Translations under genes and position numbers: made by a program | NCBI GenBank assembly: GCA_919902495.1 | Contig: CAKKRC010000041.1 | Coordinates: 30,786-94,785 of the forward strand | Source of the DNA: Nitrospiria bacterium | GTDB lineage: Bacteria > Nitrospirota > UBA9217 | Direction: 5' to 3' | Length of the DNA stretch: 64,000 nucleotides | The notes under the pieces: generated by a model | The model's input: the letters and a program-made list of their open reading frames with translations, nothing else | Databases searched by the model: none | What the model was told of the DNA's origin: nothing | Part shown: piece by piece, positions 2,795 through 60,221 of the stretch | How positions within the stretch are numbered: the stretch's first letter is position 1 | How the letters are laid out: each line of letters begins with the position of its first letter

Positions 2795-2861
2795 CTGTCA
2801 TGTTCAGAATTCTTTATTCTGCATCATCAATTGCAAAGATCCTATTTTCAAGGAGGTGTCT

Positions 2862-3539: not shown

Positions 3540-3555
3540 CCCCCCCTCACCTCGT

Positions 3556-3580
3556 TTCCTCTCCCCCGAGGGGAGAGGAA
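3556..3580. repeat. palindromic element TTCCTCTCCCC-CGA-GGGGAGAGGAA
   Basis: 11-bp perfect stem between norC and norB. Same CCTCTCCC/GGGAGAGG family as 51365-51388, 53517-53540 and 63936-63958. Confidence 0.8.
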
Positions 3581-3616
3581 GTAAAAGGTGCGGGGCATTA
3601 TCAATCGGAGGTGACA

Positions 3617-22520: not shown

Positions 22521-23951
22521 CTATCCTTTTACGCAGGCCAGCGGCCTGACGCGCGCGACCTTCCTGGCAAGACCCGCGAAATGTGCCGCATCAACCACCT
22601 CGGTCACGTCCTTGTAGGACCCCGGTGCCTCCTCGGCTATGCCGGAATAGGAATGGCCCCGCACCAGGATGCCCTGCCCTTCGAGCTGCCGCACCACGTC
22701 GCGGCCGTGCCACTGCTTCTTCGCCTGGGTGCGGGACATGGCCCTGCCGGCTCCGTGGCAGGCGGAGCCGAATGCCACCTCCATCCCCTGTTCCGTGCCA
22801 ATGAGGATATAGGATGACGTGCCCATGGTCCCGCCGATCAGCACCGGCTGGCCCACATGCCGGTATTCCGGCGGCAGGTCGACCTGGCCCGGCCCGAAAG
22901 CGCGCGTGGCGCCCTTGCGGTGCACAAAGAGCCGCTTCTTCCTTCCCTTGACGACATGGGTCTCGACCTTGCAGGTATTGTGGCTGATGTCGTACAGCAT
23001 GGTGATCCGCCCTTCGGGAAAGACGCCGGTGAAGATCTCCCGCACCAGGTGGGTGATGATCTGGCGGTTCGCCAGCGCGCAGTTGATGCCCGCGCTCATG
23101 GCGCCGAAGTAGGACTTTCCTTCCGGCGACGTGATGGGCGCCGAGGCAAGCTCGCGGTCCTTGATCGGCAGTTTGAACCGCTGCGCGGCATTGGCAAGAC
23201 TCCGGAGATAGTCGGTGCCGATCTGGTGCCCCAATCCCCGGGAGCCGCAGTGCACCGAGATGACCACGCCGTCCTTCCGGAGCCCCATGGCCTGGCCGGC
23301 CTGCTCATCGTAGAGCTCGTCAACGACCTGCACTTCAAGATAGTGGTTTCCCGAGCCGAGGGTCCCCATTTCGCGGTATTGCCGCTTCTTTGCCGTATCC
23401 GATACCTGGGAGGGGTCCGCGCCGTCAACACGGCCGTGCTCCTCGATATATTCCAGGTCCTCTTTCACGCCGTAGCCCTTTTTCACCGCCCACTCTGCGC
23501 CGCCCTGCAGCATCTCGTCGATCTGGGAGGCGTTGAGCTTGATGAGACCTTCGGACCCGACGCCCGCCGGAACGCGGTTGTAGAACTGGTCAACAAGACG
23601 CTCGATCCCGGGCAGGACATCGTCCTTCATCAGGCCGGTCTTCATGGTGCGCACTCCGCAGGATATGTCGAATCCCACGCCGCCCATGGAGATGATGCCG
23701 CCCTCATCGGGATCGAAGGCCGCCACACCGCCGATGGGGAAACCGTAGCCCCAGTGGGCGTCGGGCATGGCCATGGAAGCGATCTGGATGCCCGGGAGGC
23801 AGGCCACATTGCGGATCTGCTCAGCCACCTTCTCATCCATCTCCGCGATGAGTTTCTCGCTGGCAAAGATCCTGCCCGGGACGTTCATGTCCCCGGTCTG
23901 CGGTATCTCCCAGCAGTAGTCGGTCAATTTATGTAACGTTCGTACGTCCAT
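22521..23951 (-). CDS. rtcB: RNA-splicing ligase RtcB
   Basis: 476 aa with GIQIASMAMPDAHWGYGFPIGGVAAFD, GVGFDISCGV, LGSGNHYLE and HCGSRGLGHQ motifs. Confidence 0.95.
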   Translation of the reverse strand: MDVRTLHKLTDYCWEIPQTGDMNVPGRIFASEKLIAEMDEKVAEQIRNVACLPGIQIASMAMPDAHWGYGFPIGGVAAFDPDEGGIISMGGVGFDISCGVRTMKTGLMKDDVLPGIERLVDQFYNRVPAGVGSEGLIKLNASQIDEMLQGGAEWAVKKGYGVKEDLEYIEEHGRVDGADPSQVSDTAKKRQYREMGTLGSGNHYLEVQVVDELYDEQAGQAMGLRKDGVVISVHCGSRGLGHQIGTDYLRSLANAAQRFKLPIKDRELASAPITSPEGKSYFGAMSAGINCALANRQIITHLVREIFTGVFPEGRITMLYDISHNTCKVETHVVKGRKKRLFVHRKGATRAFGPGQVDLPPEYRHVGQPVLIGGTMGTSSYILIGTEQGMEVAFGSACHGAGRAMSRTQAKKQWHGRDVVRQLEGQGILVRGHSYSGIAEEAPGSYKDVTEVVDAAHFAGLARKVARVRPLACVKG

Positions 23952-23968
23952 AATTCACCGTTCCACAA

Positions 23969-24067
23969 GCGTCGGCAGTCAGCAGTCGGCAGTCACAAGT
24001 CTTAGGCAGACAAAAGGAACAGATATCAGACTGCCGACTGACGACGATCGACTGTTTTACGACTGCC
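23969..24067. repeat. hairpin element with tandem-unit arms (CAGTCGG units)
   Basis: CAGTCGGCAGTC (23983-23994) pairs perfectly with GACTGCCGACTG (24029-24040). Tail TTTTACGACTGCC. Lies between rtcB and archease. Confidence 0.75.
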
Positions 24068-24068
24068 C

Positions 24069-24557
24069 CTACACATCCACCACGCACTGGGCCACATACC
24101 GGCCGTTCTCCTGACGAACGCTGAGCATATGATAGGTCGCACCCTTCACTTCAACATGAGCGCGATGCTTCCCCTGGTCAAGGTGCTCGCCCCAGGCCGT
24201 GCCTGCAAGCCTGTTCCCTTCGATCCTGACCTCGAACTTCGAGAAGACCATGCGTTCGATGTCGGAAACCGCGAGAAGCGAGTTCAACCATTCCACGAGC
24301 AGCTTTTCCTGATCGTCTGCCGTGACGTTCACGCCGCGGAACTCTTTCTGTTCTACCCGGGTGATATCGACCATGACCGAATAGAGCGCTGCAGCCGTGT
24401 TCGCGAACGCCTCTTCAGGCGTACTCCCGAATCCGCGTATGCCGATGTCCGCCTCATGCTCGAAGGTCTCGTAGTCCACTCCGCACTCCGCACTTCGCAC
24501 TTGGTCATTATCTTCCCCTTGTCCCCTTGTCCCCTTGTCCCCGCGTCCCCGTGTCAT
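24069..24557 (-). CDS. archease (RtcB activator); start uncertain
   Basis: Core DYETFEHEADIGIRGFGSTPEEAFANTA...GATYHML is archease-like. The first ~19 codons (MTRGRGDKGTRGQGEDNDQ) are read from a tandem octamer repeat. In-frame GTG alternatives are at 24500 and 24479. Confidence 0.75.
   Translation of the reverse strand: MTRGRGDKGTRGQGEDNDQVRSAECGVDYETFEHEADIGIRGFGSTPEEAFANTAAALYSVMVDITRVEQKEFRGVNVTADDQEKLLVEWLNSLLAVSDIERMVFSKFEVRIEGNRLAGTAWGEHLDQGKHRAHVEVKGATYHMLSVRQENGRYVAQCVVDV
24477..24555. repeat. one-armed tandem arrays (CACTCCG x4 degenerate; GTCCCCTT x5 degenerate)
   Basis: CACTCCGCACTCCGCACTTCGCACTTGG, then CCCCTTGTCCCCTTGTCCCCTTGTCCCCGCGTCCCCGTGTC. Confidence 0.85.
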
Positions 24558-26582: not shown

Positions 26583-26906
26583 ATGAAAAAGGGAATCATT
26601 GTCGTACTGCTGATCGTATGTCTGGTTCTGCCGTTCTCAGCAATGGCGCAGAAGGTAGGCGGCGGTGACATCAAGTTCACCCCCAAGAACGCCGGTCCGG
26701 TGAACTTCAGCCACGAGTCCCATGTCAAAGGCAAAGGCATCAAGTGCACGGGCTGCCACTACCAGATCTTCCAGATGGCCCAGGGTTCGTACAAGATGGA
26801 CATGAACAAGATCACGAAGGGAGACTTCTGCGGCAAGTGCCACAACGGCCAAAAGTCGTTCGACGTGAAGGGAACCGATAATTGCGTCAAATGCCATAAA
26901 CCATAA
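26583..26906 (+). CDS. c7-type triheme cytochrome c, paralog 1
   Basis: Signal peptide plus GGGDIKF...FSHESH, and three CxxCH motifs (CTGCH, CGKCH, CVKCH). Confidence 0.85.
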   Translation: MKKGIIVVLLIVCLVLPFSAMAQKVGGGDIKFTPKNAGPVNFSHESHVKGKGIKCTGCHYQIFQMAQGSYKMDMNKITKGDFCGKCHNGQKSFDVKGTDNCVKCHKP

Positions 26907-26921
26907 ATAACAGGGGGTCCC

Positions 26922-27236
26922 ATGCGGAACGCCATTCTGTTGTTTGTCCTGCTGTTCCTGTTCACCACGGCAACCACAGCTTTTGCAGTCGGAGGCGGAG
27001 ACATCGCGTTTACCTTGCAAAAGGCGGACCCTGTCCATTTCAGCCATGACTACCACATTAAAACGCGCGGCATCAAGTGCGTGGCCTGCCACTTTCAGAA
27101 GTTCTCCAGGGGTCAGGGTTACGAGATGAAAAAAGAAGTGATCACGAAGCGTGATTTCTGCGAGCATTGTCATAACGGGATGAAGGGCTTTGACGCAGGA
27201 TCGACGAAGAACTGCACCCGCTGTCACAAGAAATAA
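26922..27236 (+). CDS. c7-type triheme cytochrome c, paralog 2
   Basis: Signal peptide plus GGGDIAF...FSHDYH, with CVACH, CEHCH and CTRCH. Confidence 0.85.
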   Translation: MRNAILLFVLLFLFTTATTAFAVGGGDIAFTLQKADPVHFSHDYHIKTRGIKCVACHFQKFSRGQGYEMKKEVITKRDFCEHCHNGMKGFDAGSTKNCTRCHKK

Positions 27237-27250
27237 CAAGGAGGCCGCGC

Positions 27251-27583
27251 ATGACGTTGAGAACCGTAGGGACCGCGCTCGTTGTTGGACTTTTTGTTCT
27301 TGCTCCGCTGACCGCCCTGGCAAAGATAGGAGGCGGAGACGTCGAATACAAGCCCAAGGGGGCGGGCAAAGTGGTCTTCGCCCATGACTACCATGTGAAC
27401 CTGAAAGGGCAGAAGTGCAGCAACTGCCACTACAAGACCTTTCAGATGAAGGGCGGCGATGCCGCCTATAAGATGGATATGTCGATGCTCACAAAAGGCC
27501 AGTTCTGCGGCAGCTGCCACAATGGTCAGAAGGGTTTTGATCTGAAGGCGGCGGACAACTGCAAACGCTGCCACAAGGACTAA
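27251..27583 (+). CDS. c7-type triheme cytochrome c, paralog 3
   Basis: Signal peptide plus GGGDVEY...FAHDYH, with CSNCH, CGSCH and CKRCH. Confidence 0.85.
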   Translation: MTLRTVGTALVVGLFVLAPLTALAKIGGGDVEYKPKGAGKVVFAHDYHVNLKGQKCSNCHYKTFQMKGGDAAYKMDMSMLTKGQFCGSCHNGQKGFDLKAADNCKRCHKD

Positions 27584-43112: not shown

Positions 43113-43628
43113 TCAGAACTTGCCGTCAATGGCCTTCAAAATGCCCTGGAGCAGTGTCGTAGGTGTCGGGGGACATCCGGGTATGACCGCATCCACGGGG
43201 ATCACCTTGCCTACTCCGCCCAGCGACGCGTAGCTCTCTCCGAACACGCCTCCATTGCAGCCGCAGTCACCCACGGCTACAACGATCTTGGGAGGCGGTG
43301 TCGCGGCGTAGGTCCGCTTGAGGGCGATCTCCATGTTATGGGAGACCGGTCCCGTCACCAGCAGCAGGTCCGCAAAACGGGGCGAAGCGGTGAAATGGAT
43401 GCCGAACCGCTCACAGTTGTAGAACGCGTTATTGATGGCGTGGATCTCAAGCTCGCAGCCGTTGCACGACCCTGCATCGACCTGCCGGATGGCGAGGCTC
43501 CGCTGGAACCGGCTCCGTATCGCCTCCTCCAGTTGCACGCCTATCTTCCCGATCTCGGGATCGGTGATCGGCGGCAGCGGCTCGGTGACGATGCCGGTGC
43601 GAAAAATGTGTTTCAAAATGCGGATCAT
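43113..43628 (-). CDS. NuoB/HycG-like small subunit of hydrogenase-related complex (EhrS-like)
   Basis: DAGSCNGCELE, VGDCGCNGG and IPGCPPTP retain the four Cys of the proximal [4Fe-4S] cluster. Confidence 0.85.
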   Translation of the reverse strand: MIRILKHIFRTGIVTEPLPPITDPEIGKIGVQLEEAIRSRFQRSLAIRQVDAGSCNGCELEIHAINNAFYNCERFGIHFTASPRFADLLLVTGPVSHNMEIALKRTYAATPPPKIVVAVGDCGCNGGVFGESYASLGGVGKVIPVDAVIPGCPPTPTTLLQGILKAIDGKF

Positions 43629-43634
43629 AAAACT

Positions 43635-43813
43635 CCAAAAGTACCTAATTTAACCACGGAGACACGGAGTCACGGAGAAAAGCGAACCAATGTTGCAACA
43701 ATTAATTAATATATTTCATTACTGCAAGCAAACACATCATTCATTCGTTTTTAAATGCAGTAAGACATTTTGTAGATGTTGCCCCTCTCCGTGTCTCCGT
43801 GCCTCCGTGGTGG
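43635..43813 (-). repeat. hairpin element (CACGGAG units) with degenerate core, opposite orientation
   Basis: CCAAAAGTACCTAA (43635-43648) resembles the reverse complement of the core. Arms ACCACGGAGACACGGAGTCACGGAGAAAAGC (43653-43683) and GCCCCTCTCCGTGTCTCCGTGCCTCCGTGGTGG (43781-43813) flank an AT-rich loop. Confidence 0.8.
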
Positions 43814-43822
43814 TATTTGACT

Positions 43823-45394
43823 TTACAGATCATGCCCCGAATAGGACTGATTGAAGCTCTTGTTGCACAGCGGGAAGTCCGGGACGATATTCCCGTGAAT
43901 GCACTGCTCCAGGCCCAGCCAGTTGACGCTCGACGGGTCCCGGACCATGCAGCGATTGATCTCCCCATTCGGCCCCGACTGCACCCAATAAAGGATCTCC
44001 CCGCGCCAGCCCTCGACCGCGGCGAATCCGGACCGGTCCGGCAATGGATCGCCGATCGGGACGATGAGCCCGTCGGACGGAACGGTCCTCAGGATCTCCC
44101 TGATGATCCTGATTGACTCGCGGATCTCCTCCACCCGAACCCATGCCCGCGCATGCGCGTCGCCGGATATGAGCACCGGTACGTTCACACTGATGCGGTC
44201 ATAGGGAGGGAACGGATGATCTACGCGGCAATCAAGGTTCAGGCCGCTCGCCCGCGCCACGATCCCCACCGCGCAGAGGTCACGCGCCTGCTCCGGCCTG
44301 AGCACGCCGGCGTCCCGCACCCGGTCCTCGAGCGATGCGTTCTCGTCATAGATCGTCACGAGTGGCTCGTACTCTCTCTCCAGCCAGGCCAGCTCGTTGG
44401 TGATCGCCAAGACCCCCTCCCCGTCGATATCTACGACGACCCCCCCGGGAACGATACGGTCCATCAGGAACCGGTGGCCAAAAAGGTGATGGTTCGTGCG
44501 AAGCAGGATCTCCTTGAGGCGGTGGAACTGATAAAAAAGGAAGGTGAAAGCAACATCGTTGCAAATGGCGCCCAGGTCCCCCAGATGATTGGCGATGCGC
44601 TCCCTTTCGAGAAACAGCGCACGGAGCCATTGCGCGCGATCAGGCAGGACGGTGCCGGTCAATGCTTCGACCGCGCGGGAGTAGGACAGACTGTGGGCAA
44701 CGGTCGTATCTCCCGAGACCCTGCCTGCCAGGCGCGCCGCCTCCTGCCAGGAGAACGATTCGAATCGTTTCTCGATGCCTTTATGCACATACCCCAGTTT
44801 TTCTTCCAGATTGATGACATCCTCGCCCATTGCCTGGAACCGGAAATGGCCCGGCTCAATGATCCCGGCATGGACCGGCCCGACCGGGATCTCGTAGATC
44901 CCATCGCCCTCGGCCCGGATCCAGCGATACTCGCCAGGGACCCGCTGCATCGTTGTTTTCGCGTCAAAGGTCTTTCTGAGCGGCCACGCGTTCGCGGGCC
45001 AGTCCTCGTGCTTGATCCATGGCCGGTCGTCGGGATTGCCGACGGGCGTAAGCCCCATGAGGCTCTGGATCTGCCGCTCGAAACGGTAGGCTGCCGCATA
45101 TTTCTTTGTCAGGCTAGGAAACGTCGCATCGCCGACCGGGACCTCGGTCTTAATAACGAGATACTCCTGCTCCCTCCGGAAGCAGGCGAAAACAGCGAAC
45201 CCTCTGCCGAAAGGCGTCTCGTCCGCCGCCCACTCCGCGGCAAGAAGCGCATAGTCCTTCTTGAGCGTCCGTGCCGCATCAGCGAACCGTTTCCGGGGGA
45301 CGACCAGGGACGACACCGAGGACGGCGCGAGGCTGTCATCTTCCCGCGCATCCTTCCCCAGTTCGTTCAGAACAAGGCTTTTCAGTCTGATCAT
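43823..45394 (-). CDS. fused NuoC/NuoD-HycE-like large subunit lacking Ni-Fe cysteine ligands (EhrL-like)
   Basis: GPVHAGIIEPGHFRF and LGYVHKGIEK are as in HycE/HyfG. The L1 motif reads RVSGDTTVAH (44693-44722) and the C-terminal motif reads NQSYSGHDL (43826-43852), so no Cys ligands remain. Confidence 0.85.
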   Translation of the reverse strand: MIRLKSLVLNELGKDAREDDSLAPSSVSSLVVPRKRFADAARTLKKDYALLAAEWAADETPFGRGFAVFACFRREQEYLVIKTEVPVGDATFPSLTKKYAAAYRFERQIQSLMGLTPVGNPDDRPWIKHEDWPANAWPLRKTFDAKTTMQRVPGEYRWIRAEGDGIYEIPVGPVHAGIIEPGHFRFQAMGEDVINLEEKLGYVHKGIEKRFESFSWQEAARLAGRVSGDTTVAHSLSYSRAVEALTGTVLPDRAQWLRALFLERERIANHLGDLGAICNDVAFTFLFYQFHRLKEILLRTNHHLFGHRFLMDRIVPGGVVVDIDGEGVLAITNELAWLEREYEPLVTIYDENASLEDRVRDAGVLRPEQARDLCAVGIVARASGLNLDCRVDHPFPPYDRISVNVPVLISGDAHARAWVRVEEIRESIRIIREILRTVPSDGLIVPIGDPLPDRSGFAAVEGWRGEILYWVQSGPNGEINRCMVRDPSSVNWLGLEQCIHGNIVPDFPLCNKSFNQSYSGHDL

Positions 45395-45499
45395 TTCATG
45401 TCATCCTATAGATAGACCACTTCACCACAGAGACACAGAATAAAGCAAAGATCTGTTTTCACCGCGTCCCCGCGTCTCCGTGTCCCCGCATCGGACGTA

Positions 45500-46948
45500 T
45501 TACTTCAGCAGCCCCACCGCCGTATGGAACCAATCGGCAAGGAACTTCGGCATATAGATGCCGATCCCGAGGACAAGAAACATGTGTAAGAGGACCGGTA
45601 CGTGGGCCACCTTCAGGAACTTCTGGTGCGGCGGAACCTCACCGGTGACCATGGGCTGTACCTTCCGAAAGAGCGCGGCAAAGGTAACGCCAAGCCCCAG
45701 GAGCAGGAACGGCGCCATGAGCGGCGCGTCCTTGATCGTCGCGGTAAGGATCAGGAACTCGCTCATGAACACGCCGAAGGGCGGCATGCCCACGATCGCC
45801 ATGACGCCGAACGTCATTCCCCAGCCGACCAGCGGGTTCCCCCGGATAAGGCCCTGGATCCTGTCCATGTCCTGCGTTCGGTGCATCTGCGACGCGTGTC
45901 CGACGGTAAAGAAGATCGCTGACTTGGTCAGGCTGTGGACCAGCATGTGCAGCAATGCGCCGAAGGTGGCAACAGGGCCGCCGAGGCCGAAGGCGAAGGT
46001 GGTGATCCCCATGTGTTCGATCGACGAATAGGCGAACATCCTCTTGATGTCCTTTTGCCTGAGCAGCGAGAACGAAGCGACGATGACCGAGAGAATGCCA
46101 AAGCCCATCATGATGTTCCCGGCGTGGTGCGTGCCCGTGGACCCGTCCACGAGGACCTTGCACCGCACCAGCGCGTACAGGGCGATATTGAGCAGAAGCC
46201 CGGAGAGGACAGCCGAGATGGGCGTTGGTCCTTCGCTGTGCGCGTCGGGCAGCCAGTTATGTACCGGCACAAGTCCCACTTTCGTTCCGTACCCGACCAT
46301 GAGAAACACAAAGGCAAGGGACAGGATGGTCGGTTCGAGCTGGTCGCTCACCTGGCTGAGATTCGTCCAGAGCAGCGCCTCACCGCCCGCCCCGAGCACC
46401 TTTTCCGCCGCAAAGTACAGCAGAACGGTTCCGAACAGCGCCAGCGCGATGCCCACGCCGCAGAGGATGAAGTACTTCCATGCAGCTTCGATCGCCGACG
46501 GTGTGCGATAGAGCGATACTAGCAGGACCGTGGACAGGGTTGCGAGCTCCATGGCGATCCAGAGGACACCCACGTTGTTCGTAAGCAGACAGAGCAGCAT
46601 GGCGAAGATGAAAAGCTGGAACATGGCATGATAGAACCGTATCCGGCGGTGCCCGATGGTCCCATGCTCCCGCTCCCGTCGCATATAACGCCTGCTGAAC
46701 AACGCCGTCGTCATGGAAACGAACGAGGTCAGCACCGCCAGGTAGACATTGAAGGCGTCGACAAAGAAGAACTTGTCCCCTGCCAGCATCGGTCCGTGGT
46801 GATAGACCTCCAGCGCAAGCGCGATGCCGGCAACGAAGGTCGCCGCCGAGCCCAGGATGTTCACTTCAGGCGCGAACTTCCGGTCGCCGATGAAGGCCAG
46901 CGCCAGCGATGCGACCAGCGGAACACATAAGAGAACAAGAAGGATCAT
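45500..46948 (-). CDS. NuoM/N-HyfF-like antiporter-type subunit
   Basis: 482-aa, ~14-TM protein of the proton-conducting membrane transporter family (WLPDAHSEGPTPISAVLSG). Confidence 0.85.
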   Translation of the reverse strand: MILLVLLCVPLVASLALAFIGDRKFAPEVNILGSAATFVAGIALALEVYHHGPMLAGDKFFFVDAFNVYLAVLTSFVSMTTALFSRRYMRREREHGTIGHRRIRFYHAMFQLFIFAMLLCLLTNNVGVLWIAMELATLSTVLLVSLYRTPSAIEAAWKYFILCGVGIALALFGTVLLYFAAEKVLGAGGEALLWTNLSQVSDQLEPTILSLAFVFLMVGYGTKVGLVPVHNWLPDAHSEGPTPISAVLSGLLLNIALYALVRCKVLVDGSTGTHHAGNIMMGFGILSVIVASFSLLRQKDIKRMFAYSSIEHMGITTFAFGLGGPVATFGALLHMLVHSLTKSAIFFTVGHASQMHRTQDMDRIQGLIRGNPLVGWGMTFGVMAIVGMPPFGVFMSEFLILTATIKDAPLMAPFLLLGLGVTFAALFRKVQPMVTGEVPPHQKFLKVAHVPVLLHMFLVLGIGIYMPKFLADWFHTAVGLLK

Positions 46949-46960
46949 GAGACCTCAATA

Positions 46961-47049
46961 CATTGGAAATATCAAATTGTAAATTAGAAATTGAATATTT
47001 TTAACGACAGCTTCTCGATCCATCAATTTGATATTTACAATTTGCAATG
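46961..47049. repeat. AT-rich hairpin element (CAAATTG/ATATCAAATTG units)
   Basis: CATTGGAAATATCAAATTGTAAAT... versus ...ATCAATTTGATATTTACAATTTGCAATG. Lies between the HyfE-like and HyfF-like genes. Confidence 0.65.
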
Positions 47050-47060
47050 ACGCGTCAGCG

Positions 47061-47726
47061 TCAATCTTCTTCCTTCAACCTCGCCATCTGGTCCACGTCG
47101 AGGCTGTCAAAGGTCGTATTGATGTGGAAAAAGAAAATACCGAAGATGAATGCCGCGATAAGGATGTCCAGGGCGACGCCGAGTTCGACCACCAGCGGCA
47201 TCCCGTAGGTCGCGCTGGTGGCGGCGAAAAAGAGGCCGTTCTCCATGGCGAGGAAACCGATGATCTGGGTGACCGCGTGCCGCCGGGTGATCATCATAAG
47301 GAGGCCGAGCATCACGGTGGCAAGCGCGACCGCAAGCGTCGACTTGGTCATCAGGGTGGACAGTTCACGGATCGGCGCGGTCAGATGGTAGGAAAAGATC
47401 ACCAGGGCAATTCCGATAAGCATGGTCGTCGGGACGTTCACGATCGTCTCCACCTCGCGGTGGATCTTCAATTTCCGGATCAGCACATGAAGGATGTACG
47501 GAAGCAGGATGACCTTGATCGCCAGGGTCAGCACCGATGAGATATACAAGTGATGCGATTGGGCAGCGAATCCAACGACGGCGGTGCTGATGGAGAGGAA
47601 CAATCCCTGCCAGGCAAACAGGTGCAGGAGCGCGTACATCCTGCGCTGCACGAGCATGGCAAAGGCCGTGAGCAGGATAAGCGCTGCCAGAAGGCTGTTC
47701 AGCTGTGCGGCAAAAGCGTAGCTCAT
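47061..47726 (-). CDS. HyfE-like membrane subunit
   Basis: 221-aa 7-TM protein. The GFLAMENGLFFAA motif is typical of hydrogenase-4 component E. Confidence 0.8.
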   Translation of the reverse strand: MSYAFAAQLNSLLAALILLTAFAMLVQRRMYALLHLFAWQGLFLSISTAVVGFAAQSHHLYISSVLTLAIKVILLPYILHVLIRKLKIHREVETIVNVPTTMLIGIALVIFSYHLTAPIRELSTLMTKSTLAVALATVMLGLLMMITRRHAVTQIIGFLAMENGLFFAATSATYGMPLVVELGVALDILIAAFIFGIFFFHINTTFDSLDVDQMARLKEED

Positions 47727-47782
47727 CGGTTCCCTTCCTGAGATAACGACGGAATCAACTTAAAATTAAAATGACAAGACTA

Positions 47783-47907
47783 TTTTCTCGCAAAGTCGCT
47801 AAGCTCGCAAAGAAAAGCAAATCCAGACTGACAATACCAAGACTTAAAGATCTTCTTTGCGTCCTTTGCGGCTCGCCTTAAAGCGCCTACTTTTGGTTGC
47901 GAGAGAC
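47783..47907 (+). repeat. MITE-like hairpin element (CGCAAAG units) with conserved core
   Basis: Left arm TTTTCTCGCAAAGTCGCTAAGCTCGCAAAGAAAAGC. Right arm TCTTCTTTGCGTCCTTTGCGGCTCGCC. Core GCGCCTACTTTTGG at 47883-47896. Closing TTGCGAGAGAC pairs with the left end. Confidence 0.85.
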
Positions 47908-47962
47908 GCCGTTTGGTTCTGCTTATCCGGTTTGGATCTTAAAACATCAAACGCCGTCCATT

Positions 47963-48907
47963 CTATTCCAGGATAAAGAACGACAGCATCCCGAGCGTGG
48001 CAAAAAGGAAAGCGCTCCCGAGAAATTCAGTCACGCGGAATATCCGCATCTTTGCCAGTCCGGTCTCGATCAGGACAAGCCCGACCCCGGAGATGCCAAG
48101 CTTCAGGGACATTATCAGAAAGGAGGAAGCAAGGCCCGCGGCCCCTCCTGCGGCATCGATACCCCAGGGGAAGAACACGGCGATACCGAGGGTGATGAAC
48201 AAAAAAAGCTTCATCATCTTCGCCCATTCGATGAGCGCAAGATGCCGGCCGGAATATTCGAGGATCATCGCTTCGTGGATCATGGTAAGTTCCAGATGCG
48301 TCGCAGGATTATCGACCGGCACCCTCCCCGTCTCTGTCAACGCAATGAGAATGAAGGCCAGGAGCGCGAATGCAAGGGACGGCCGAAGGATGGAATATCC
48401 CTGGGATACCACAATGGCCATCTGGGACAGCGACGTCGACTTGCTTGCCAGGGAAACAGCGAAGATCGCCATGAGCATGGCCGGCTCGGCAAGCGACGCG
48501 ATCGTCATCTCCCTGCTCGAGCCCATACCGCCGAATGACGTGCCGATGTCCATGCCCGCCAGCGCTGTAAAGAACCGTGCAATGGCAAAGAGCGCCACGA
48601 GCGCGATAACGTCTGCCGTGGCCGACAACGGCAGGTCAACAGAGATGATCGGGATGATGCCACCGGCCAGTACGGTGACGCCAAAGACGAGGTACGGAGT
48701 GGACCGGAATATCCACGAGGCGTTCTCGGCAAGAGCTACGTCCTTGGAAAACAATTTACAGAGGTCGCGGTAGGGCTGGAGCAGGCTCGGCGATGTGCGT
48801 CCCTGCGACCAGCACTTCACCATTTTCACCCACCCCGCGAACAGCGGAGCCGCAAAGAGAAGTACAAAGACCTGGATGAGCTCTATGAGCAACGGATGGA
48901 CCTTCAA
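47963..48907 (-). CDS. NuoH/HyfC-like membrane subunit
   Basis: 314-aa 8-TM protein of the complex I subunit 1 family (GRVPVDNPATHLELTMIHEAMILEYSG). Confidence 0.85.
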   Translation of the reverse strand: MKVHPLLIELIQVFVLLFAAPLFAGWVKMVKCWSQGRTSPSLLQPYRDLCKLFSKDVALAENASWIFRSTPYLVFGVTVLAGGIIPIISVDLPLSATADVIALVALFAIARFFTALAGMDIGTSFGGMGSSREMTIASLAEPAMLMAIFAVSLASKSTSLSQMAIVVSQGYSILRPSLAFALLAFILIALTETGRVPVDNPATHLELTMIHEAMILEYSGRHLALIEWAKMMKLFLFITLGIAVFFPWGIDAAGGAAGLASSFLIMSLKLGISGVGLVLIETGLAKMRIFRVTEFLGSAFLFATLGMLSFFILE

Positions 48908-48954
48908 TCAATGACTCCTGACGCGATACGCATATTCCGCAAAATGATCTTCAT

Positions 48955-50997
48955 TTACAAGAACAGCAGCAGAACAATGATCGTCACAAAGGAATAGATC
49001 AGATATACCTGGATCCGGCCCTGCTGCAGCTTTCCCACCTTGCGGGAGATCCAGAAGCTTACGTCTATCACCGGTTTGTACAGCCATCCCCAGAAACGGT
49101 CACGTACGCGAAGACGGTACTGGAGCCGTTCGGGAAAGGCCGGATGCGCCCCCGGCGGGAACGGCTTCACTTCTTCTTTCACCGAGAACAGGAATCCCAA
49201 TATCCGGCGCAGCGGCATGGAGAACGACGTGGCCGTGTACTGCATTCTCGAAGTGATCTTTTCAAAACCGCAGTCCCACAACGGCACCCGGTGGATGGTC
49301 CCGGGTCGCGTATGGAGAATAAGGTACGTCACCACGACAACTGCCAGGATGCCGACAAAAGCAACCGGGGCAGAATAGGAGGCCCGCTCAGCGGCGATCG
49401 GCGTAAGCCACATCCATCCGAAGCCCGCGGCGGAGGACGCGATCTTTCCGCCCACCAGTTGTTCCGTAATGGGGTCCATCCAGTGGATCAGGTAGGTCGG
49501 AAAGACGCCGAGGCCCAGGCACGTGATCGCGGCCAGAAGCATGCCGGCTCGCATGGCCCAGCCGACCTCATGCACACGGTGATGATGAGTTCCCCGCCGG
49601 TGCCCGAGGAACGTGATCCCGAACGCCTTTACGAAGCCGGCGGCAGCCAGCGCGCCGCTTAACGCCAGAAGCGCCGCCCCCAGGGGGATCAGCAGGTTCA
49701 GGATGGGACTCTCGAGCGCCGGGGACAGCAGGAATGCCTGATAGGTCAGCCACTCCGATACAAAGCCGTTAAAAGGCGGAAGGGCCGAGATGGATACGCA
49801 CCCTACAAGAAACAAGGCGGCGGTCCATGGCAGGTCCCTGATCAGTCCTCCCATGTTCTCCATGTTCCGTTCATGGGTGGCATGGAGCACCGCACCCGCC
49901 CCCATAAACAGGAGCCCTTTGTACATCGCGTGATTCAGCGTATGGTACAGCGCCGCGATGAGCGCAAGCGCCGCAAGCAGCACCATCTCCGAGGAGCTGA
50001 AGATCATGGAAAGCCCGATACCGATCAGGATAATGCCGATGTTCTTCACCGAGCTGTAGGCAAGGAGCTTTTTCAGGTCCTGCTGCATCACCGCGGACAA
50101 CATGCCTACGACCGCGGAAATGAGGCCGAAGATCAGCACCAGCGCGCCCCACCAGACGGGGAAATCGCCGATGAGGTCGAAGACCACACGGATGATCCCG
50201 TAGATGGCCGTCTTGAGCATCACGCCGCTCATGAGCGCCGATACGTTCGAAGGCGCTACCGGGTGGGCTTCCGGCAGCCAGACATGGAGTGGAACGACCC
50301 CTGCCTTGGCGGAGAACCCGAAGAACGCAAGAAGGAACGCCGCCGTTGCCCACCCTGCCGGAAGATCGGTCTCCCGCATCGCGTCGAACGTATAGCCTTC
50401 GAAGCCGTGGTAATCCGTTGCAAGTCCCGCCATCACGCCGAAAGACAGCAGGATCGCGATCGCGCCCACATGGGCCACGACCAGGTACAGCAGCGCGGCC
50501 CTGCGGTTCTCGATGCGTTCATCCTCGAAGAGCACAAGGAAATAGGAGGAAGCTGCCATGATCTCCCAGGACACCAGGAAGATGAAGGCATCGTCCGACA
50601 GGACCACGAGGAACATCCCGGCAAGGAACAGCGACGAGAATATGACCAGGCTGGTCACCTGCCGATGGCCGAGGAATCCCTTGACATATCCCACTGAATA
50701 GACGGAAACGAAGAATGCCAGGAGCCCGATCACCGCGAGAAAGAATCCCGACAGGTGGTCAAGCCGCAGATGGACGGGAAGGTCGGGAAGGCCCAGGGGA
50801 AGGATCACCTGGGCGATCGTGCCGCGTGACACTGCCCAGACGCCGGCACCAGCGGTAAGCAGCGCAGCGACCGCCATAAGCGAATATCCGGCGGTTATGA
50901 GGAGGCGTTGATGGGAGCGCAGGAACAGCGCCAGCAGCACAACGAGCAGCAATACCGCGAAGGATAGTGACAGGATAGTTGCGGGAGTAATGATCAC
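48955..50997 (-). CDS. NuoL/HyfB-like antiporter-type subunit
   Basis: 680-aa polytopic protein (WLPEAHPVAPSNVSALMSG). GTG start preceded by GGGGAGG. Confidence 0.85.
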   Translation of the reverse strand: MIITPATILSLSFAVLLLVVLLALFLRSHQRLLITAGYSLMAVAALLTAGAGVWAVSRGTIAQVILPLGLPDLPVHLRLDHLSGFFLAVIGLLAFFVSVYSVGYVKGFLGHRQVTSLVIFSSLFLAGMFLVVLSDDAFIFLVSWEIMAASSYFLVLFEDERIENRRAALLYLVVAHVGAIAILLSFGVMAGLATDYHGFEGYTFDAMRETDLPAGWATAAFLLAFFGFSAKAGVVPLHVWLPEAHPVAPSNVSALMSGVMLKTAIYGIIRVVFDLIGDFPVWWGALVLIFGLISAVVGMLSAVMQQDLKKLLAYSSVKNIGIILIGIGLSMIFSSSEMVLLAALALIAALYHTLNHAMYKGLLFMGAGAVLHATHERNMENMGGLIRDLPWTAALFLVGCVSISALPPFNGFVSEWLTYQAFLLSPALESPILNLLIPLGAALLALSGALAAAGFVKAFGITFLGHRRGTHHHRVHEVGWAMRAGMLLAAITCLGLGVFPTYLIHWMDPITEQLVGGKIASSAAGFGWMWLTPIAAERASYSAPVAFVGILAVVVVTYLILHTRPGTIHRVPLWDCGFEKITSRMQYTATSFSMPLRRILGFLFSVKEEVKPFPPGAHPAFPERLQYRLRVRDRFWGWLYKPVIDVSFWISRKVGKLQQGRIQVYLIYSFVTIIVLLLFL

Positions 50998-51350
50998 CGT
51001 GCCTCCCCTGTCCTGACCGGGAGGGGATGTTGTGTACTGCTGGTTTCACTGTTCGGAAGGACTATTCGGGAAGGTACTGGTGTGAATAGAGATAGAGATA
51101 TGACTGCCGGTAAATTGTGCGATGCATTCATTTTTCAAAAAACCGTCACCGTAATGTATCCAGGGTGGATGTGTCAGAACGAAAAAACTTTACAATAAAT
51201 GAAGGGGTTCTGTCAATGATAAAATGCTTTCCCGGAGAGGAAAACGCGGGTTGATGTGGCCCTTCCCCACCCAGCCTCCTCCTTTATTGATCGTCTCAAA
51301 ATAGAAACGACATGACCGAGATCCGTCTCCCCAACACCTCTATCATAATT

Positions 51351-51404
51351 CCCCTCACCCCTGCCCCTCTCCCCATTGTGGGAGAGGGAAAAAGGGAGAG
51401 GGTG
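51351..51404. repeat. palindromic CCCTCTCCC/GGGAGAGGG element
   Basis: Inner 9-bp stem 51365-51373/51380-51388, flanked by further C-rich and G-rich runs. Confidence 0.75.
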
Positions 51405-51501
51405 CTTCATGATCGAGGGGCTACAGCATATCCTCCCCTTGGTATCAGGAAAGGTACGGATCTGTTCGTTCAGCATAGCAGGGGGATGTATAAAAATGAG
51501 C

Positions 51502-53460
51502 TCATGACGCGATTCTTTTGAAGATCACCATTCCCAGCGGCGGAACCGTGATCGAGAGGGAATGGTCTTTCCCGTGCATGGGAACAGGCGTGGATACGAC
51601 GCCGCCGAAATTGCCCTGTCCGCTGCCGCCGTACTCCTGAGAATCGCTGTTCAGGACCTCACGCCAATATCCGCCTGACGGCACGCCGACGAGATAATTG
51701 TGCCTCGGCACCGGCGTGAAATTGCTGACGACGAGCAGGACATCATCGCGGTCCTTCCCTTTCCGGAAATAGCTCACCACGCTCTGCTCCCAGTCGCTAA
51801 GGTCGCCCCACGCGAAGCCATCGTTCACGAAGTCGAGCTCATAGAGCGCCGGCTCGCCGCGATACAGGATGTTCAGGTGCTTCATCCACGTCTGGACCGA
51901 CCGGTGTGCGGGGAACTGGAGCAGGTGCCAGTCCAGGCTCCTTTCGTGGTCCCACTCGCTCCACTGGCCGAACTCGGCGCCCATGAACAGGAGCTTCTTC
52001 CCGGGATGGGTGTAGAGATAGCCCATCAGGAGCCGCAGGTTCGCGAACTTCTGCCAGTCGTCTCCGGGCATCTTGTTCAGGAGCGAACCCTTGCCGTGCA
52101 CCACTTCGTCGTGGGACAGGGAGAGCATGAAGTTCTCGAAGAATGCGTACCAGATGCTGAAGGTCAGCTGGTTATGGTGATATTTCCGGAACACCGGGTC
52201 GGTCGTAAAATACGCAAGCGTGTCGTGCATCCAGCCCATGTTCCACTTCATCCCGAAGCCCAGCCCGCCGACATACACGGGCCGCGAGACCATGGGCCAT
52301 GATGTGGACTCCTCGGCAATGGTCTGAACGTCGGGGAATCTGCGATAGACCTCCTCGTTCAGCCGCCGGAGAAATGTGATTGCCTCGATGTTCTCCTTGC
52401 CGCCGTACTGGTTGGGGATCCACTCGCCTTCCTTCCGCGAGTAATCGAGGTAGAGCATGGACGCCACGCCGTCGATCCTGATGCCGTCAACGTGGTACCG
52501 TTCGAGCCAGAACAGTGCGCTGCTCACGAGGAAGGAGCGGACCTCGTGCCTGCCGTAGTTGAAGATATAGCTCTTCCAGTCGGGGTGAAAGCCCTTTTGC
52601 GGGTCCGCATGCTCGAAAAGATGGGTCCCGTCGAAGTAAGCGAGGCCGTGCTCGTCGCTCGGGAAGTGCGACGGCACCCAGTCGAGGATCACGCCGATCC
52701 CGTTCTGGTGCAGATGGTCGACGAGATACATCATGTCCTGCGGGCTGCCGTACCTGCTCGAAGGGGCAAAGTACCCCGTGGTCTGGTATCCCCAGGACCC
52801 GTAGAAGGGATGTTCCATCACGGGCATGAGCTGCACATGGGTGAACCCCATCTCTTTCATATACTCTGCCAGGGATTCCGCCATCTCCCGGTAGGTGAGA
52901 TAGCCGTTGTTCCGCTCAACGGCCCGGGCCCATGAGCCCGGGTGTATCTCATAGACCGACATCGGGGCAGAGAGGCTGTTCGCCCGGTGCCGGTCCTTCA
53001 TCCATGCATCGTCCTTCCATTGATACTTGAGGTCGCAGACGATCGAGGCGGTCCGTGGCGGCGCCTCCCAGCAGAAGGCAAAGGGGTCGCCCTTGTCCGC
53101 GCGATAGCCCGCATGGCGCGAGATGACATGGTATTTATAGAACGCACCAGCCTCGATGCCCGGGATGAACCCTTCCCAGATGCCGGACCCGTCCCAGCGG
53201 GCGCTCAGGTGATGGGATCCCTTGTTCCATTGGTTGAACTCGCCGATGACCGATACCCTCTCCGCTTCCGGCGCCCAGACGGCAAAGAGCGTGCCCTTCA
53301 TGCCCTCATGCACCATCGGATGGGCTCCAAGCTTGTCATACAGGCTGAAGTGGCTCCCCTCCTTGAACAGGTAGATGTCATGGTCCGTCAGAAGGCTCGG
53401 GCCATGGACCGCTGGGACCTGCTTTTTTGTCTTTTTGCCTTGCGCACCCATAGGGACCAC
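51502..53460 (-). CDS. glgB: 1,4-alpha-glucan branching enzyme
   Basis: 652 aa with [34 protein letters not shown] and SHDEVVHGK (GH13 catalytic regions). Confidence 0.95.
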
Positions 53461-60094: not shown

Positions 60095-60221
60095 CACCAC
60101 GGAGGCACAGAGTCACGGAGAAAATACTTTGCTAAGAGTTGTTTATAATGTTCTCATTCGTGTCATTCGTCCCATTCGTGACATTCGTGTTAAGGCTTCG
60201 CATCGTCCCTGACTTTTAATG
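60095..60221 (+). repeat. hairpin element (CACGGAG arm / CATTCGTG arm) with degenerate core
   Basis: Arm CACCACGGAGGCACAGAGTCACGGAGAAAA and arm TTCTCATTCGTGTCATTCGTCCCATTCGTGACATTCGTGTT pair with G-T wobbles on the plus strand. The loop contains TATAAT (60145-60150) upstream of rnr. Confidence 0.7.

Follow-up and report, generated by a model that had tools for sequence, protein, structure and literature searches.

The six ehr genes lie as intact ORFs on the minus strand, from 48955-50997 down to 43113-43628, in a 64-kb window, i.e., the whole stretch of DNA analysed. The contig derives from an uncultured groundwater Nitrospirota. In the order A-B-C-D-L-S, ehrA (48955..50997) codes a HyfB/NuoL-like antiporter-type subunit of 680 aa, ehrB (47963..48907) a HycD/HyfC/NuoH-like subunit of 314 aa, ehrC (47061..47726) a HyfE-like subunit of 221 aa with a NuoK-like C-terminal half, ehrD (45500..46948) a HyfF/NuoM-N-like antiporter-type subunit of 482 aa, ehrL (43823..45394) a fused NuoC-NuoD/HycE-like large subunit of 523 aa devoid of Ni-Fe ligands, and ehrS (43113..43628) a HycG/NuoB-like small subunit of 171 aa with one [4Fe-4S] site. 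The same ORFs, in this order, had been proposed in an earlier sequence-only reading; profile searches agree with the assignments, and the ORF lengths are identical in an independent public gene call of the source contig. The membrane complex coded by these six genes is real and well conserved; it descends from energy-converting hydrogenases and has lost the Ni-Fe site.

As the sequence-only reading had indicated, the flanks are glgB (51502-53460), beyond ehrA, and an NlpC/P60 gene (41517-43067), beyond ehrS, both identified by profile match; neighbouring gene families are not conserved among related ehr loci. Between glgB and ehrA, a gap of 504 bp contains a promoter-like site on the minus strand (TTGACA-18-TAAAGT, 51187..51216), which is no more than a pattern match from a consensus scan, with 10/12 matches. 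A palindromic element occupies the ehrL-ehrS gap (43653..43811); its 26-nt arms, with three NCACGGAG octamers, are 107 nt apart. Over the whole window the octamer pair is present 6 times, compared with 0.02 expected, and it recurs in gaps between ehr genes of the related loci L017, L020 and L079.

EhrL matches PF00329 and PF00346 in the profile search, corresponding to a NuoC-NuoD fusion, and its ORF is uninterrupted, as described previously; phmmer against the PDB retrieved HycE (7z0s_E, 2.9e-69), Nqo4 (7.8e-40), MbhL (1.5e-34) and MbsL (5.7e-25). Positions 44693..44722 (minus strand) code residues R225-H234, RVSGDTTVAH, the former L1 Ni-Fe motif, while 43826..43852 (minus strand) code N515-L523, NQSYSGHDL, the former L2 motif; both pairs of coordinates had been given exactly in the sequence-only reading. 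The HycE counterparts, RVCGICGFAH and DPCYSCTDR, pair column for column with these stretches in the phmmer alignment with HycE of PDB 7Z0S, and a MAFFT alignment that included E. coli HycE, HyfG and NuoCD gave the same pairing; thus, the four ligand cysteines correspond to S227, T230, S517 and G520 in EhrL. The earlier claim that all four Ni-Fe cysteines are replaced was borne out in full by this HycE/HyfG/NuoD-type comparison, in which the ligand positions are free of cysteine. EhrL also terminates at the HycE cleavage point and has no C-terminal extension. The AF2 model of EhrL (pLDDT 79.9, pTM 0.84) has 7z0s_E as top Foldseek match (TM 0.85); however, pLDDT falls below 50 in residues 152-204 and 496-523, the very segments that form the pocket, where the model is unreliable and therefore provides no usable geometry.

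The conservation of the overall HycE fold and of the EPGH loop could speak for an enzyme that is still a hydrogenase, with a metal site held by non-cysteine ligands. This appears scarcely credible, however, as every ligand position lacks cysteine, the C-terminal extension required for protease maturation is missing from EhrL, the window contains no hyp or hycI gene, and we know of no [NiFe] site with Ser/Thr/Gly ligation. Moreover, Ehr expression in Nitrospira moscoviensis is unresponsive to H2 (PMC12342949), a result that agrees with Ehr not being a hydrogenase but offers no positive clue.

The replacement residues were compared in 80 orthologous loci from Nitrospirota, Geobacteraceae, Desulfuromonadales and Nitrospinota. 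In the L1 motif R, G, D and H are found in 80/80 sequences and S227 in 79/80, while position 230 is T in 61 and S in 19; in the L2 motif N, S, Y and S are present in 79/80 and G in 80/80. RVSGD[TS]TVAH and NQSYSG[HN]DL are near-invariant, whereas only 108/523 EhrL columns are invariant overall. In a wider set, ~95 of about 120 full-length 50%-identity representatives lack the Ni-Fe cysteines, the majority of them reading [SA]-G-D-x ... N-L-S-Y-[SA]-G-x-D-L. The old Ni-Fe pocket is now a conserved hydroxyl/carboxylate site (S227, D229, T230, S517, G520), rebuilt and not decayed.

The order A-B-C-D-L-S is conserved in all of the 80 loci that are long enough to display it, including the Geobacteraceae MAG orthologues, which have identical gene order and whose EhrL is 65-67% identical to the one studied here. 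All six genes are intact and co-linear, and comparison with the closest unsaturated relative (L032, dS 0.44-0.75) gave dN/dS values of 0.01-0.14 for each of them, which indicates strong purifying selection. The disappearance of all four catalytic cysteines might suggest a decaying, functionless hydrogenase remnant under relaxed selection, a view voiced for Geobacter KN400 in one recent paper that regards Ehr as non-functional (PMC13194489). This explanation is very improbable: the six ORFs are intact, the replacement residues recur in the wider Cys-less representatives, and EhrA-1, EhrC, EhrL and EhrS are among the proteins detected in Geobacter sulfurreducens (PMC7894505). Relaxed selection is contradicted by the dN/dS values and by the conserved replacement motifs.

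EhrS belongs to PF01058 (NuoB family) by profile search, and its best PDB match is HycG (7z0s_G, 5.1e-36). The four [4Fe-4S] cysteines that had been described as kept, C55, C58, C122 and C152, align with the cluster cysteines of HycG/HyfI and are invariant (71/71); in the alignment their motif is CxxC, while NuoB has CC. EhrL and EhrS are all that remains of the peripheral part of the complex, and its only [4Fe-4S] site corresponds to N2 or to the proximal cluster. The N-terminal ~19 residues of EhrS bear a weak resemblance to the N-terminus of HycF/NuoI (hhalign P = 0.013, 19 columns).

As regards the membrane subunits, EhrA matches NCBIfam NF005086 ('hydrogenase 4 subunit B') end to end (residues 6-679; 809 bits vs a cut-off of 667), besides PF00361, and EhrD matches NF005045 ('hydrogenase 4 subunit F') with 766 bits, over the cut-off. 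EhrA residues E145, K231, K262, H352, H356, K360 and E415 occupy NuoL/M/N transport positions and are invariant in 47 sequences; in EhrD, E134, K223, N254, H334, H338, K342 and E397 are invariant in 62 sequences, the Asn at position 254 being found also in HyfF. The TM5 Glu, TM7 Lys, TM8 Lys/Asn, TM11 His-His-Lys and TM12 Glu of both proteins match E. coli NuoL/M/N. EhrB belongs to PF00146 (NuoH/HycD family, 2.1e-35), retains the EYSG motif in the alignment and has 29 charged residues with at least 97% conservation (56 sequences), including E133, E141, E192, E206, E212, E217 and E227. EhrC scored 105 bits with the NCBIfam HyfE model, under the cut-off of 136, and 23 bits with PF00420, also under cut-off, and no solved homologue was found by sequence search; it can be aligned with HyfE and NuoK, with E162, E181 and D187 conserved. 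Together, EhrB, EhrC, EhrD and EhrA retain the full Lys/Glu/His set that carries protons in complex I.

Alternatively, Ehr may have become an Mrp-like cation/proton antiporter, redox-independent or merely redox-gated, in which the only role left to EhrL, EhrS and the cluster is that of a structural cap or redox-state sensor. In favour of this, conservation is highest in the membrane subunits (80-99% identity among related loci for EhrC and EhrD vs 64-88% for EhrL), with EhrD first of all (232/482 columns invariant); there is one cluster only, which no wire reaches, a substrate site cannot be recognised, and a conserved Asp adjoining the cluster could be a redox-linked protonation site. However, strong purifying selection extends to the peripheral subunits and to all four cluster cysteines, and we know of no other complex that was converted in this way, making an antiporter unlikely. 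Some relatives carry a second paralogous Cys-less six-gene cluster directly upstream, and in two Geobacteraceae loci the small subunit of an adjoining cluster is fused to a HycF-like 2x[4Fe-4S] domain, which speaks for a continuing role of electron transfer in the broader Cys-less group; both arrangements are absent in this window.

Ehr and complex I (NuoB, CD, H, K, L, M, N) share a homologous core, the antiporter Lys/Glu/His residues and a single N2-equivalent cluster position, but Ehr lacks NuoA, E, F, G, I and J, its cluster motif is CxxC instead of CC, and EhrB is distant from ND1. The homology to NuoB/C/D/H/K/L/M, the presence of Ehr in menaquinone-using lineages (Geobacter and Nitrospirota) and the conserved polar pocket residues, which could hydrogen-bond a headgroup, are compatible with a ferredoxin-independent, quinone-linked, complex I-like enzyme whose rebuilt pocket binds menaquinone and which takes its electrons from a donor other than ferredoxin. 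Such an enzyme is nonetheless quite improbable, since in the alignment the headgroup-binding Tyr and His of complex I are replaced in EhrL by Gly228 and Ile, the beta1-beta2 loop is the HycE-like EPGHFRF, and EhrB matches ND1 only at about 2e-6, compared with 2.1e-42 for HycD (7z0s_D), its best PDB match; in addition, Riflemargulisbacteria with Ehr were reported to have no identifiable complete quinone biosynthesis pathways (PMC6349859). The label of 'intermediate between hydrogenases and complex I', adopted in the sequence-only reading, finds no support in the residues, because every diagnostic feature is hydrogenase-like (CxxC, Gly at the Tyr position, EPGHFRF) and the best PDB match of EhrL, EhrS and EhrB is E. 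coli formate hydrogenlyase.

Indeed, formate hydrogenlyase/hydrogenase 3 (PDB 7Z0S) and Ehr have in common the hydrogenase-type CxxC small subunit and the EPGHFR loop, although Ehr lacks the Ni-Fe site, HycF, HycB and FdhF, and possesses two antiporter-like subunits plus HyfE in place of the lone HycC of hydrogenase 3. E. coli hydrogenase 4 (Hyf, formate hydrogenlyase 2) provides counterparts in the same relative order: EhrA and EhrD score above the equivalog cut-offs curated for HyfB and HyfF, and EhrB, EhrC, EhrL and EhrS correspond to HyfC, HyfE, HyfG and HyfI. Ehr is, however, without HyfA, HyfD, HyfH (the NuoI-type 2x[4Fe-4S] subunit), HyfJ and HyfR, and EhrL, unlike HyfG, has neither the four Ni-Fe cysteines nor the C-terminal maturation peptide. 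To our knowledge, MBX/MBS is the one characterised group-4-like complex that gave up H2 chemistry. Pyrococcus furiosus MBH and MBS/MBX (PDB 6CFW, 6U8Y) belong to the same superfamily as Ehr, but are more distant in sequence than HycE and, unlike Ehr, carry Mrp-type small subunits as well as a subunit of NuoI type; MBX/MBS is sometimes grouped with Ehr in the literature (PMC6349859).

The closest correspondence is with the Ehr (Ech-/energy-converting hydrogenase-related) clusters of G. sulfurreducens (GSU0739-0745, a range that holds the extra locus tag GSU0744), where ehrA-D, L and S were named (PMC7894505), and of Nitrospira. They display the same six subunit types and order, a large subunit without the CxxC Ni-Fe motifs and a small subunit with the [4Fe-4S] motif, and no essential difference distinguishes this locus. 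The match to Ehr that had been proposed is supported by gene content, order, loss of the Ni-Fe ligands, the retained [4Fe-4S] motif, the lack of HycF/NuoI and the Geobacteraceae orthologues. The cluster is an orthologue within the already described Ehr family, and hence genuine but not new. No Ehr function has been demonstrated, as stated beforehand; the literature to 2025-2026 still calls it unknown (PMC12342949, PMC10284858, PMC10432482).

tblastn searches of the whole 64-kb window (E <= 1e-4) yielded no match to E. coli NuoA/E/F/G/I/J, HycB/F/H/I, HypA/B or HyfA/H/J, nor was an FDH gene found in it, consistent with the absence of HycF/NuoI, formate dehydrogenase, hyp/hycI and NADH module noted before; 78/80 related loci likewise have no HycF/NuoI-type subunit or dehydrogenase alongside ehr. 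Ehr could be a membrane coupling module on which a separately encoded soluble dehydrogenase (an FDH with NuoE/F-like subunits, a CO dehydrogenase or similar) docks through EhrL/EhrS, comparable to FdhF-HycB on hydrogenase 3. An FDH-Ehr complex was proposed in Margulisbacteria and Saganbacteria from nearby fdhA and nuoEF-like genes (PMC6349859), all Ehr subunits (GSU0739-45) of G. sulfurreducens were reported as more abundant on formate, which is a correlation (PMC7894505), and the three subunits with solved homologues are all closest to formate hydrogenlyase. However, FDH, NuoEFG and HycB-type genes are missing from the window and do not recur beside ehr in the 80 loci, and Ehr lacks a HycF-type subunit, the wire between FdhF-HycB and HycG in formate hydrogenlyase; such docking is rather unlikely.

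On balance, we somewhat favour the view that the cluster codes a working, non-hydrogenase, membrane-bound Ehr complex of the group-4-hydrogenase/complex I superfamily, a single-cluster, ion-translocating redox module whose partner is encoded elsewhere. Expression of the orthologous system speaks for it as well: besides being detected in G. sulfurreducens and more abundant on formate (PMC7894505), Ehr subunits were higher in a syntrophic coculture (PMC8691401). EhrB and EhrC would couple redox changes in the EhrL pocket and at the EhrS cluster to the movement of H+ (or Na+) by way of EhrD and EhrA, in the manner of formate hydrogenlyase, MBH and complex I; this coupling is inferred from homology alone. 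As no HycF/NuoI-type subunit or dehydrogenase is present here or in 78/80 loci, the direct electron partner of the complex would most likely be a common low-potential carrier that is soluble and encoded elsewhere, ferredoxin or flavodoxin. Against this proposal, in every characterised relative known to us a NuoI/HycF-type subunit feeds the proximal cluster, and Ehr has none. Both the Ni-Fe cysteines and the Tyr/His pair that binds quinone in complex I are missing from the EhrL pocket, which also counts against it. As for direction, we tentatively suggest that Ehr may reversibly couple the soluble carrier to the membrane potential: in one direction ferredoxin oxidation would drive ion export, and in the other the membrane potential would drive ferredoxin reduction for CO2-fixing or acetate-assimilating metabolism.

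The six ehr genes of the window are consecutive on the minus strand, and ORF calls together with profile searches gave each the subunit type that had been named from the sequence alone. EhrA (48955-50997, 680 aa) matches 'hydrogenase 4 subunit B' end to end with 809 bits (cut-off 667), EhrB (47963-48907, 314 aa) carries PF00146 (NuoH/HycD), and EhrC (47061-47726, 221 aa) is HyfE-like with 105 bits, a score below the cut-off, its C-terminal half resembling NuoK; EhrD (45500-46948, 482 aa) matches 'hydrogenase 4 subunit F' with 766 bits, EhrL (43823-45394, 523 aa) is a fusion of PF00329 (NuoC) and PF00346 (NuoD), and EhrS (43113-43628, 171 aa) belongs to PF01058 (NuoB/HycG). A public gene prediction made independently for the 585-kb source contig, which belongs to a Hainich groundwater metagenome, has the same six proteins with equal lengths. 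The cluster is flanked by glgB and an NlpC/P60 gene, as first described.

A protein search returned at least 8000 scored homologues, the best 119 being 74-88% identical and the best named ones coming from Nitrospirota MAGs. When one genome per species was scanned, 80 loci were obtained (loci are designated by L numbers) with EhrL 64-88% identical, mostly from Nitrospirota, and also from Geobacteraceae, Desulfuromonadales, 'Deltaproteobacteria' and Nitrospinota; the order A-B-C-D-L-S is found in each locus long enough to show it, and the Geobacteraceae loci L067, L070 and L077 share it with the window. The cluster is the one named ehrABCDLS in Geobacter sulfurreducens (GSU0739-0745), where subunits are annotated EhrA-1, EhrC, EhrL and EhrS (PMC7894505); therefore, the identification as Ehr made in the sequence-only reading was correct and the family is a known one, with agreement in large-subunit homology, CxxC loss, EhrS cysteines and gene content and order. 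Ehr is also reported from Geobacter, Mycobacterium tuberculosis, ammonia-oxidising archaea and several candidate phyla, and about one in two Nitrospirales genomes has it (PMC12342949). The statement that no function is known for it is shared by publications on Nitrospira from 2023 and 2025, both reviews and genome papers (PMC10284858, PMC12342949); a review on ammonia-oxidising archaea (PMC10432482) and a paper on M. tuberculosis Rv0081-0087 likewise call it unknown. The window cluster is a further member of this known, uncharacterised family: the copy is no new kind of object, and its presence in a Nitrospirota genome will not surprise a specialist. Because G. sulfurreducens, which is cultured and has genetics, and the enrichment-grown N. 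moscoviensis carry orthologues or close relatives, the window copy alone does not make the question of function more testable; the value is carried by the comparative results, namely purifying selection, the conserved replacement motif, intact pump residues, the self-contained unit and the tandem paralogues.

The loss of all four Ni-Fe ligand cysteines from EhrL was borne out by a phmmer alignment with HycE of the E. coli formate hydrogenlyase structure 7Z0S and by a MAFFT alignment with HycE, HyfG and NuoCD of E. coli MG1655, which are concordant at every column of both motifs and place S227, T230, S517 and G520 at the ligand positions. The N-terminal motif L1 (44693-44722) reads RVSGDTTVAH against RVCGICGFAH in HycE, and the C-terminal motif L2 (43826-43852) reads NQSYSGHDL against DPCYSCTDR; neither RxCGxCxxxH nor DPCxxCxxH/R, the ligand motifs of group 4 [NiFe]-hydrogenases, is found in aligned EhrL. 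The protein terminates three residues past the last ligand position, at the point where the maturation protease cuts HycE, and therefore has no C-terminal peptide. Invariant columns number 108 of 523 across the 80 orthologues; both replaced motifs are nonetheless nearly fixed, with R225, G228, D229, H234 and G520 in 80/80, S227, N515, S517, Y518 and S519 in 79/80, and Thr or Ser at T230. The aspartate D229 occupies the position, hydrophobic in hydrogenases, between the two L1 cysteines.

An exhaustive HMMER search over 1.84 billion cluster representatives gave 7766 matches; among the best 150 of these, about 120 are full-length, of which 19 retain the complete set of four cysteines and about 95 no more than one, this second group mostly reading [SA]-G-D-x-x-x-x-H and N-L-S-Y-[SA]-G-x-D-L. 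Since the replacement motifs are near-fixed in the orthologues and recur among these wider Cys-less representatives (large subunits without the Ni-Fe cysteines), the old Ni-Fe pocket is, to judge from the aligned residues, rebuilt as a conserved hydroxyl/carboxylate site, in which D229, S227, T230 and S517 are precise targets for mutagenesis. In a rough neighbour-joining tree of 127 large subunits, whose topology does not settle the number of cysteine losses, the window EhrL lies within a large Cys-less radiation beside genuine four-cysteine hydrogenases. The AF2 model of EhrL (pLDDT 79.9, pTM 0.84) gave TM-scores of 0.85 to 7z0s_E by Foldseek and about 0.82 to E. coli NuoCD; the predicted structure confirms the fold and is unreliable at the pocket.

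Among known systems, the best match of EhrL is HycE (2.9e-69), followed by Nqo4 (7.8e-40), MbhL (1.5e-34) and MbsL (5.7e-25); EhrS matches HycG with 5.1e-36, and EhrB matches HycD with 2.1e-42, whereas complex I ND1 reaches only about 2e-6. By sequence scores and modelled fold, the peripheral and NuoH-like subunits thus appear closest to those of E. coli formate hydrogenlyase. A cryptic hydrogenase is a reading that we regard as hardly credible; EhrL is devoid of the C-terminal extension that belongs to group 4 maturation, and hypA/B and hycI were not found in the 64 kb. On the side of complex I, its NuoA, I, J and E, F, G have no tblastn matches in the window, and the alignments place Gly228 and Ile in EhrL where NuoD of complex I has the quinone-headgroup ligands Tyr and His (Y87 and H38 of Nqo4); the EhrL loop EPGHFRF is the same as in HycE. 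The cluster had been described as an apparent intermediate between group 4 hydrogenases and complex I; the residues do not bear this out, as the quinone ligands are missing and the loop is of HycE type, and on this evidence Ehr is a side branch derived from hydrogenases, not a half-way form towards complex I. An enzyme acting on quinone, for which one may point to the homology with Nuo subunits and against which stand the two exchanged ligands, is accordingly ranked as quite improbable.

EhrS retains C55, C58, C122 and C152 in register with the cluster cysteines of HycG and HyfI, as had been noted, and these residues are invariant in 71/71 sequences; the first pair forms a hydrogenase-type CxxC, whereas NuoB has CC. 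The reported absence of a NuoI/HycF-type ferredoxin subunit, hyp/hycI genes and an NADH module held for the 64-kb window, where tblastn with E. coli NuoA/E/F/G/I/J, HycB/F/H/I, HypA/B and HyfA/H/J gave zero matches; in group 4 hydrogenases, by contrast, a HycF/EchF/MbhN-type 2x[4Fe-4S] subunit is present, and the queries without matches include HycF, HyfH and NuoI. A separate NuoI/HycF gene was found within the cluster in 0/80 loci. The first 19 residues of EhrS (MIRILKHIFRTGIVTEPLP) are highly conserved and align with the N-termini of HycF, HyfH, NuoI and a fused protein of Geobacteraceae; an hhalign comparison with the HycF N-terminus is weak (P = 0.013 over 19 columns). Descent of EhrS from an I-B fusion, with the ferredoxin core deleted and the N-terminal segment kept, would fit this pattern and is offered as a suggestion; the firmer statement that EhrS is a HycF-HycG fusion minus the ferredoxin core was not adopted at that P value. 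In two Geobacteraceae loci (L077:319-1125 and L070:3177-3941), a gene directly upstream of ehrA encodes a NuoB/HycG-like subunit with an N-terminal HycF/NuoI-like 2x[4Fe-4S] domain, and it is preceded by a large subunit ending in NLSYCGFDL.

The membrane arm was compared by aligning EhrA and EhrD with E. coli NuoL/M/N, HyfB/D/F and HycC. The Lys/Glu/His chain that carries protons in the antiporter-like subunits of complex I is present in both, and its residues are invariant in 47 EhrA and 62 EhrD orthologues: the TM5 glutamate (EhrA E145, EhrD E134), the TM7 lysine (K231, K223), the TM8 residue (K262 in EhrA; N254, an Asn as in HyfF, in EhrD), the TM11 His-His-Lys set (H352, H356 and K360; H334, H338 and K342) and the TM12 glutamate (E415, E397). 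EhrB has 29 charged residues conserved to at least 97%, including the glutamate run E192-E227 around an EYSG motif, the NuoK-like half of EhrC retains E162, E181 and D187, and EhrC and EhrD are the best-conserved subunits; on these residues the membrane arm looks competent. A redox-gated or redox-independent antiporter is a reading that we consider unlikely. The Mrp cation/proton antiporters combine MrpA/D-type subunits with MrpB, E, F and G and have no hydrogenase-type peripheral subunits; Ehr differs in having EhrL and EhrS, and its sole small membrane subunit is of the HyfE type (NuoK/MrpC-like).

Selection was estimated against locus L032, the nearest relative in which synonymous divergence is not saturated (dS 0.44-0.75), and dN/dS values of 0.010-0.143 were obtained for the six genes, which indicates that strong purifying selection acts on the complex. 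A Geobacter paper of 2026 calls Ehr 'already nonfunctional' (PMC13194489); the view of a non-functional relic is untenable under such selection and is very improbable, also with replacement motifs nearly fixed in 80 orthologues and cluster cysteines conserved in 71/71.

A conserved partner gene was sought by grouping into families every ORF that lies up to 6 kb from the cluster in the 80 loci. The recurrent families are lineage-restricted (a c7 cytochrome in 11 loci, a small membrane protein in 16, a 343-aa protein in 23 and an XRE-cupin regulator in 8), besides paralogous Ehr genes; none adjoins the window's cluster, and therefore no partner emerged. The flanks are not conserved either, glgB being upstream only in locus L029 and NlpC/P60 downstream only in the nearest relatives, and the six genes make up a self-contained unit that lacks a conserved cis partner. 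Outside the cluster, the genes that Pfam searches annotated in the window offer no obvious partner; they are hemA, a gene for cytochrome c assembly, a pair encoding a cytochrome c and a heme-copper oxidase, a protoglobin fusion, an ABC-2 transporter, RtcB with archease, glnE, three c7 cytochromes and a sigma-54 regulator. A docking module for a dehydrogenase encoded in trans is rather unlikely, though it ranks above the other rivals.

In some Nitrospirota, a paralogous six-gene Ehr unit lies directly upstream of the orthologous one, forming a 12-gene tandem just downstream of glnE (L088:4819-19890; also L005, L007, L008, L009, L018 and L026), and in L089 (220-7411) it stands alone. Its large subunit is Cys-less (RVSGTSSFAH ... 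NLSYSGTDM) and about 39% identical to EhrL, and the unit likewise lacks a NuoI-type subunit. In the window the order is glnE, lpxL, tauE, a small gene, glgB and then a single Ehr unit, the paralogous one being absent.

Three intergenic gaps of the cluster are unusually long (194, 236 and 504 bp; the matching gaps in relatives span 0 to about 300 bp), and hidden small genes were rejected there, the gaps having palindromes and no conserved ORFs; an 87-aa ORF at 51213-51476 has a counterpart in none of the loci. Palindromes lie at 43653-43811, in the ehrL-ehrS gap, and at 47794-47873, 46962-47044 and 60098-60120; the first has 26-nt inverted arms 107 nt apart, each of three NCACGGAG octamers. For the octamer pair, 6 occurrences were counted in the window where 0.02 would be expected, and ehr intergenic gaps of L017, L020 and L079 have it too; a small mobile palindromic element is one possible explanation, an mRNA-stabilising or processing hairpin another. 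Unrelated gene islets of 1.6-5 kb lie between ehrC and ehrD in five loci (L003:3500-8400, L077:5269-7374, L025, L036 and L067) and one lies between ehrL and ehrS in L074; by eye their ORFs look toxin-antitoxin- or mobile-like (possibly a PIN-like protein, and a zinc-ribbon plus HTH protein), and insertions seem to have struck this one intergenic spot repeatedly.

Elsewhere in the window, three tandem genes for small triheme c7-type cytochromes (PF14522) occupy 26583-27583 on the plus strand; in 11 related loci from Nitrospirota, and not in the window, a homologue directly follows ehrS. At 2856-4990 (plus strand), a cytochrome c protein with FixO/NorB-cytochrome-like domains precedes a homologue of heme-copper oxidase subunit I (PF00115), near hemA, a CopD-cytochrome b5 fusion and a gene for cytochrome c assembly; this suggests that the organism has a terminal enzyme of the oxidase or NO-reductase-like kind. 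An ORF at 12090-12986 (minus strand) unites, unusually, a protoglobin and a PsiE (phosphate-starvation-inducible) membrane domain, and at 22521-24557 (minus strand) an RtcB RNA ligase gene adjoins an archease gene beside a radical SAM gene.

Taken with the comparisons, we consider it somewhat probable that the cluster encodes a working, ion-translocating, non-hydrogenase Ehr complex. By analogy with its relatives, a redox change at the EhrS cluster and the EhrL pocket would drive, or be driven by, ion movement through EhrB, EhrC, EhrD and EhrA, and the electron donor or acceptor would be a soluble low-potential carrier of general use, ferredoxin for example, that docks directly; a ferredoxin-type carrier would be the simplest partner because there is neither a NuoI/HycF-type wire subunit nor a dedicated dehydrogenase. 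The lineages with this orthologue need reduced ferredoxin for pyruvate and 2-oxoglutarate synthases, yet live on higher-potential donors. In Geobacter, Ehr was more abundant on formate than with H2 present (PMC7894505). For these two reasons, reversible coupling of ferredoxin to the membrane potential is the preferred specific reading, a tentative one whose chance falls clearly short of even. A bolder proposal, to which we give a low probability, is that Ehr represents a new kind of complex I-superfamily machine, with the old pocket rebuilt as a new, strictly conserved hydroxyl/carboxylate site (S-G-D-[ST] plus S-Y-S-G) beside a lone [4Fe-4S] cluster and the NuoI-type wire deleted; such a machine might be an ion pump with a single cluster, redox-Bohr-driven or redox-gated and needing no bound substrate, or, alternatively, an enzyme with new metal-free or non-Ni chemistry at the rebuilt site, and tandem paralogous units (Ehr2-Ehr1) might act jointly. 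If the function of Ehr is ferredoxin turnover linked to the proton-motive force, it would bear on the low-potential electron supply of nitrite oxidisers and metal reducers.
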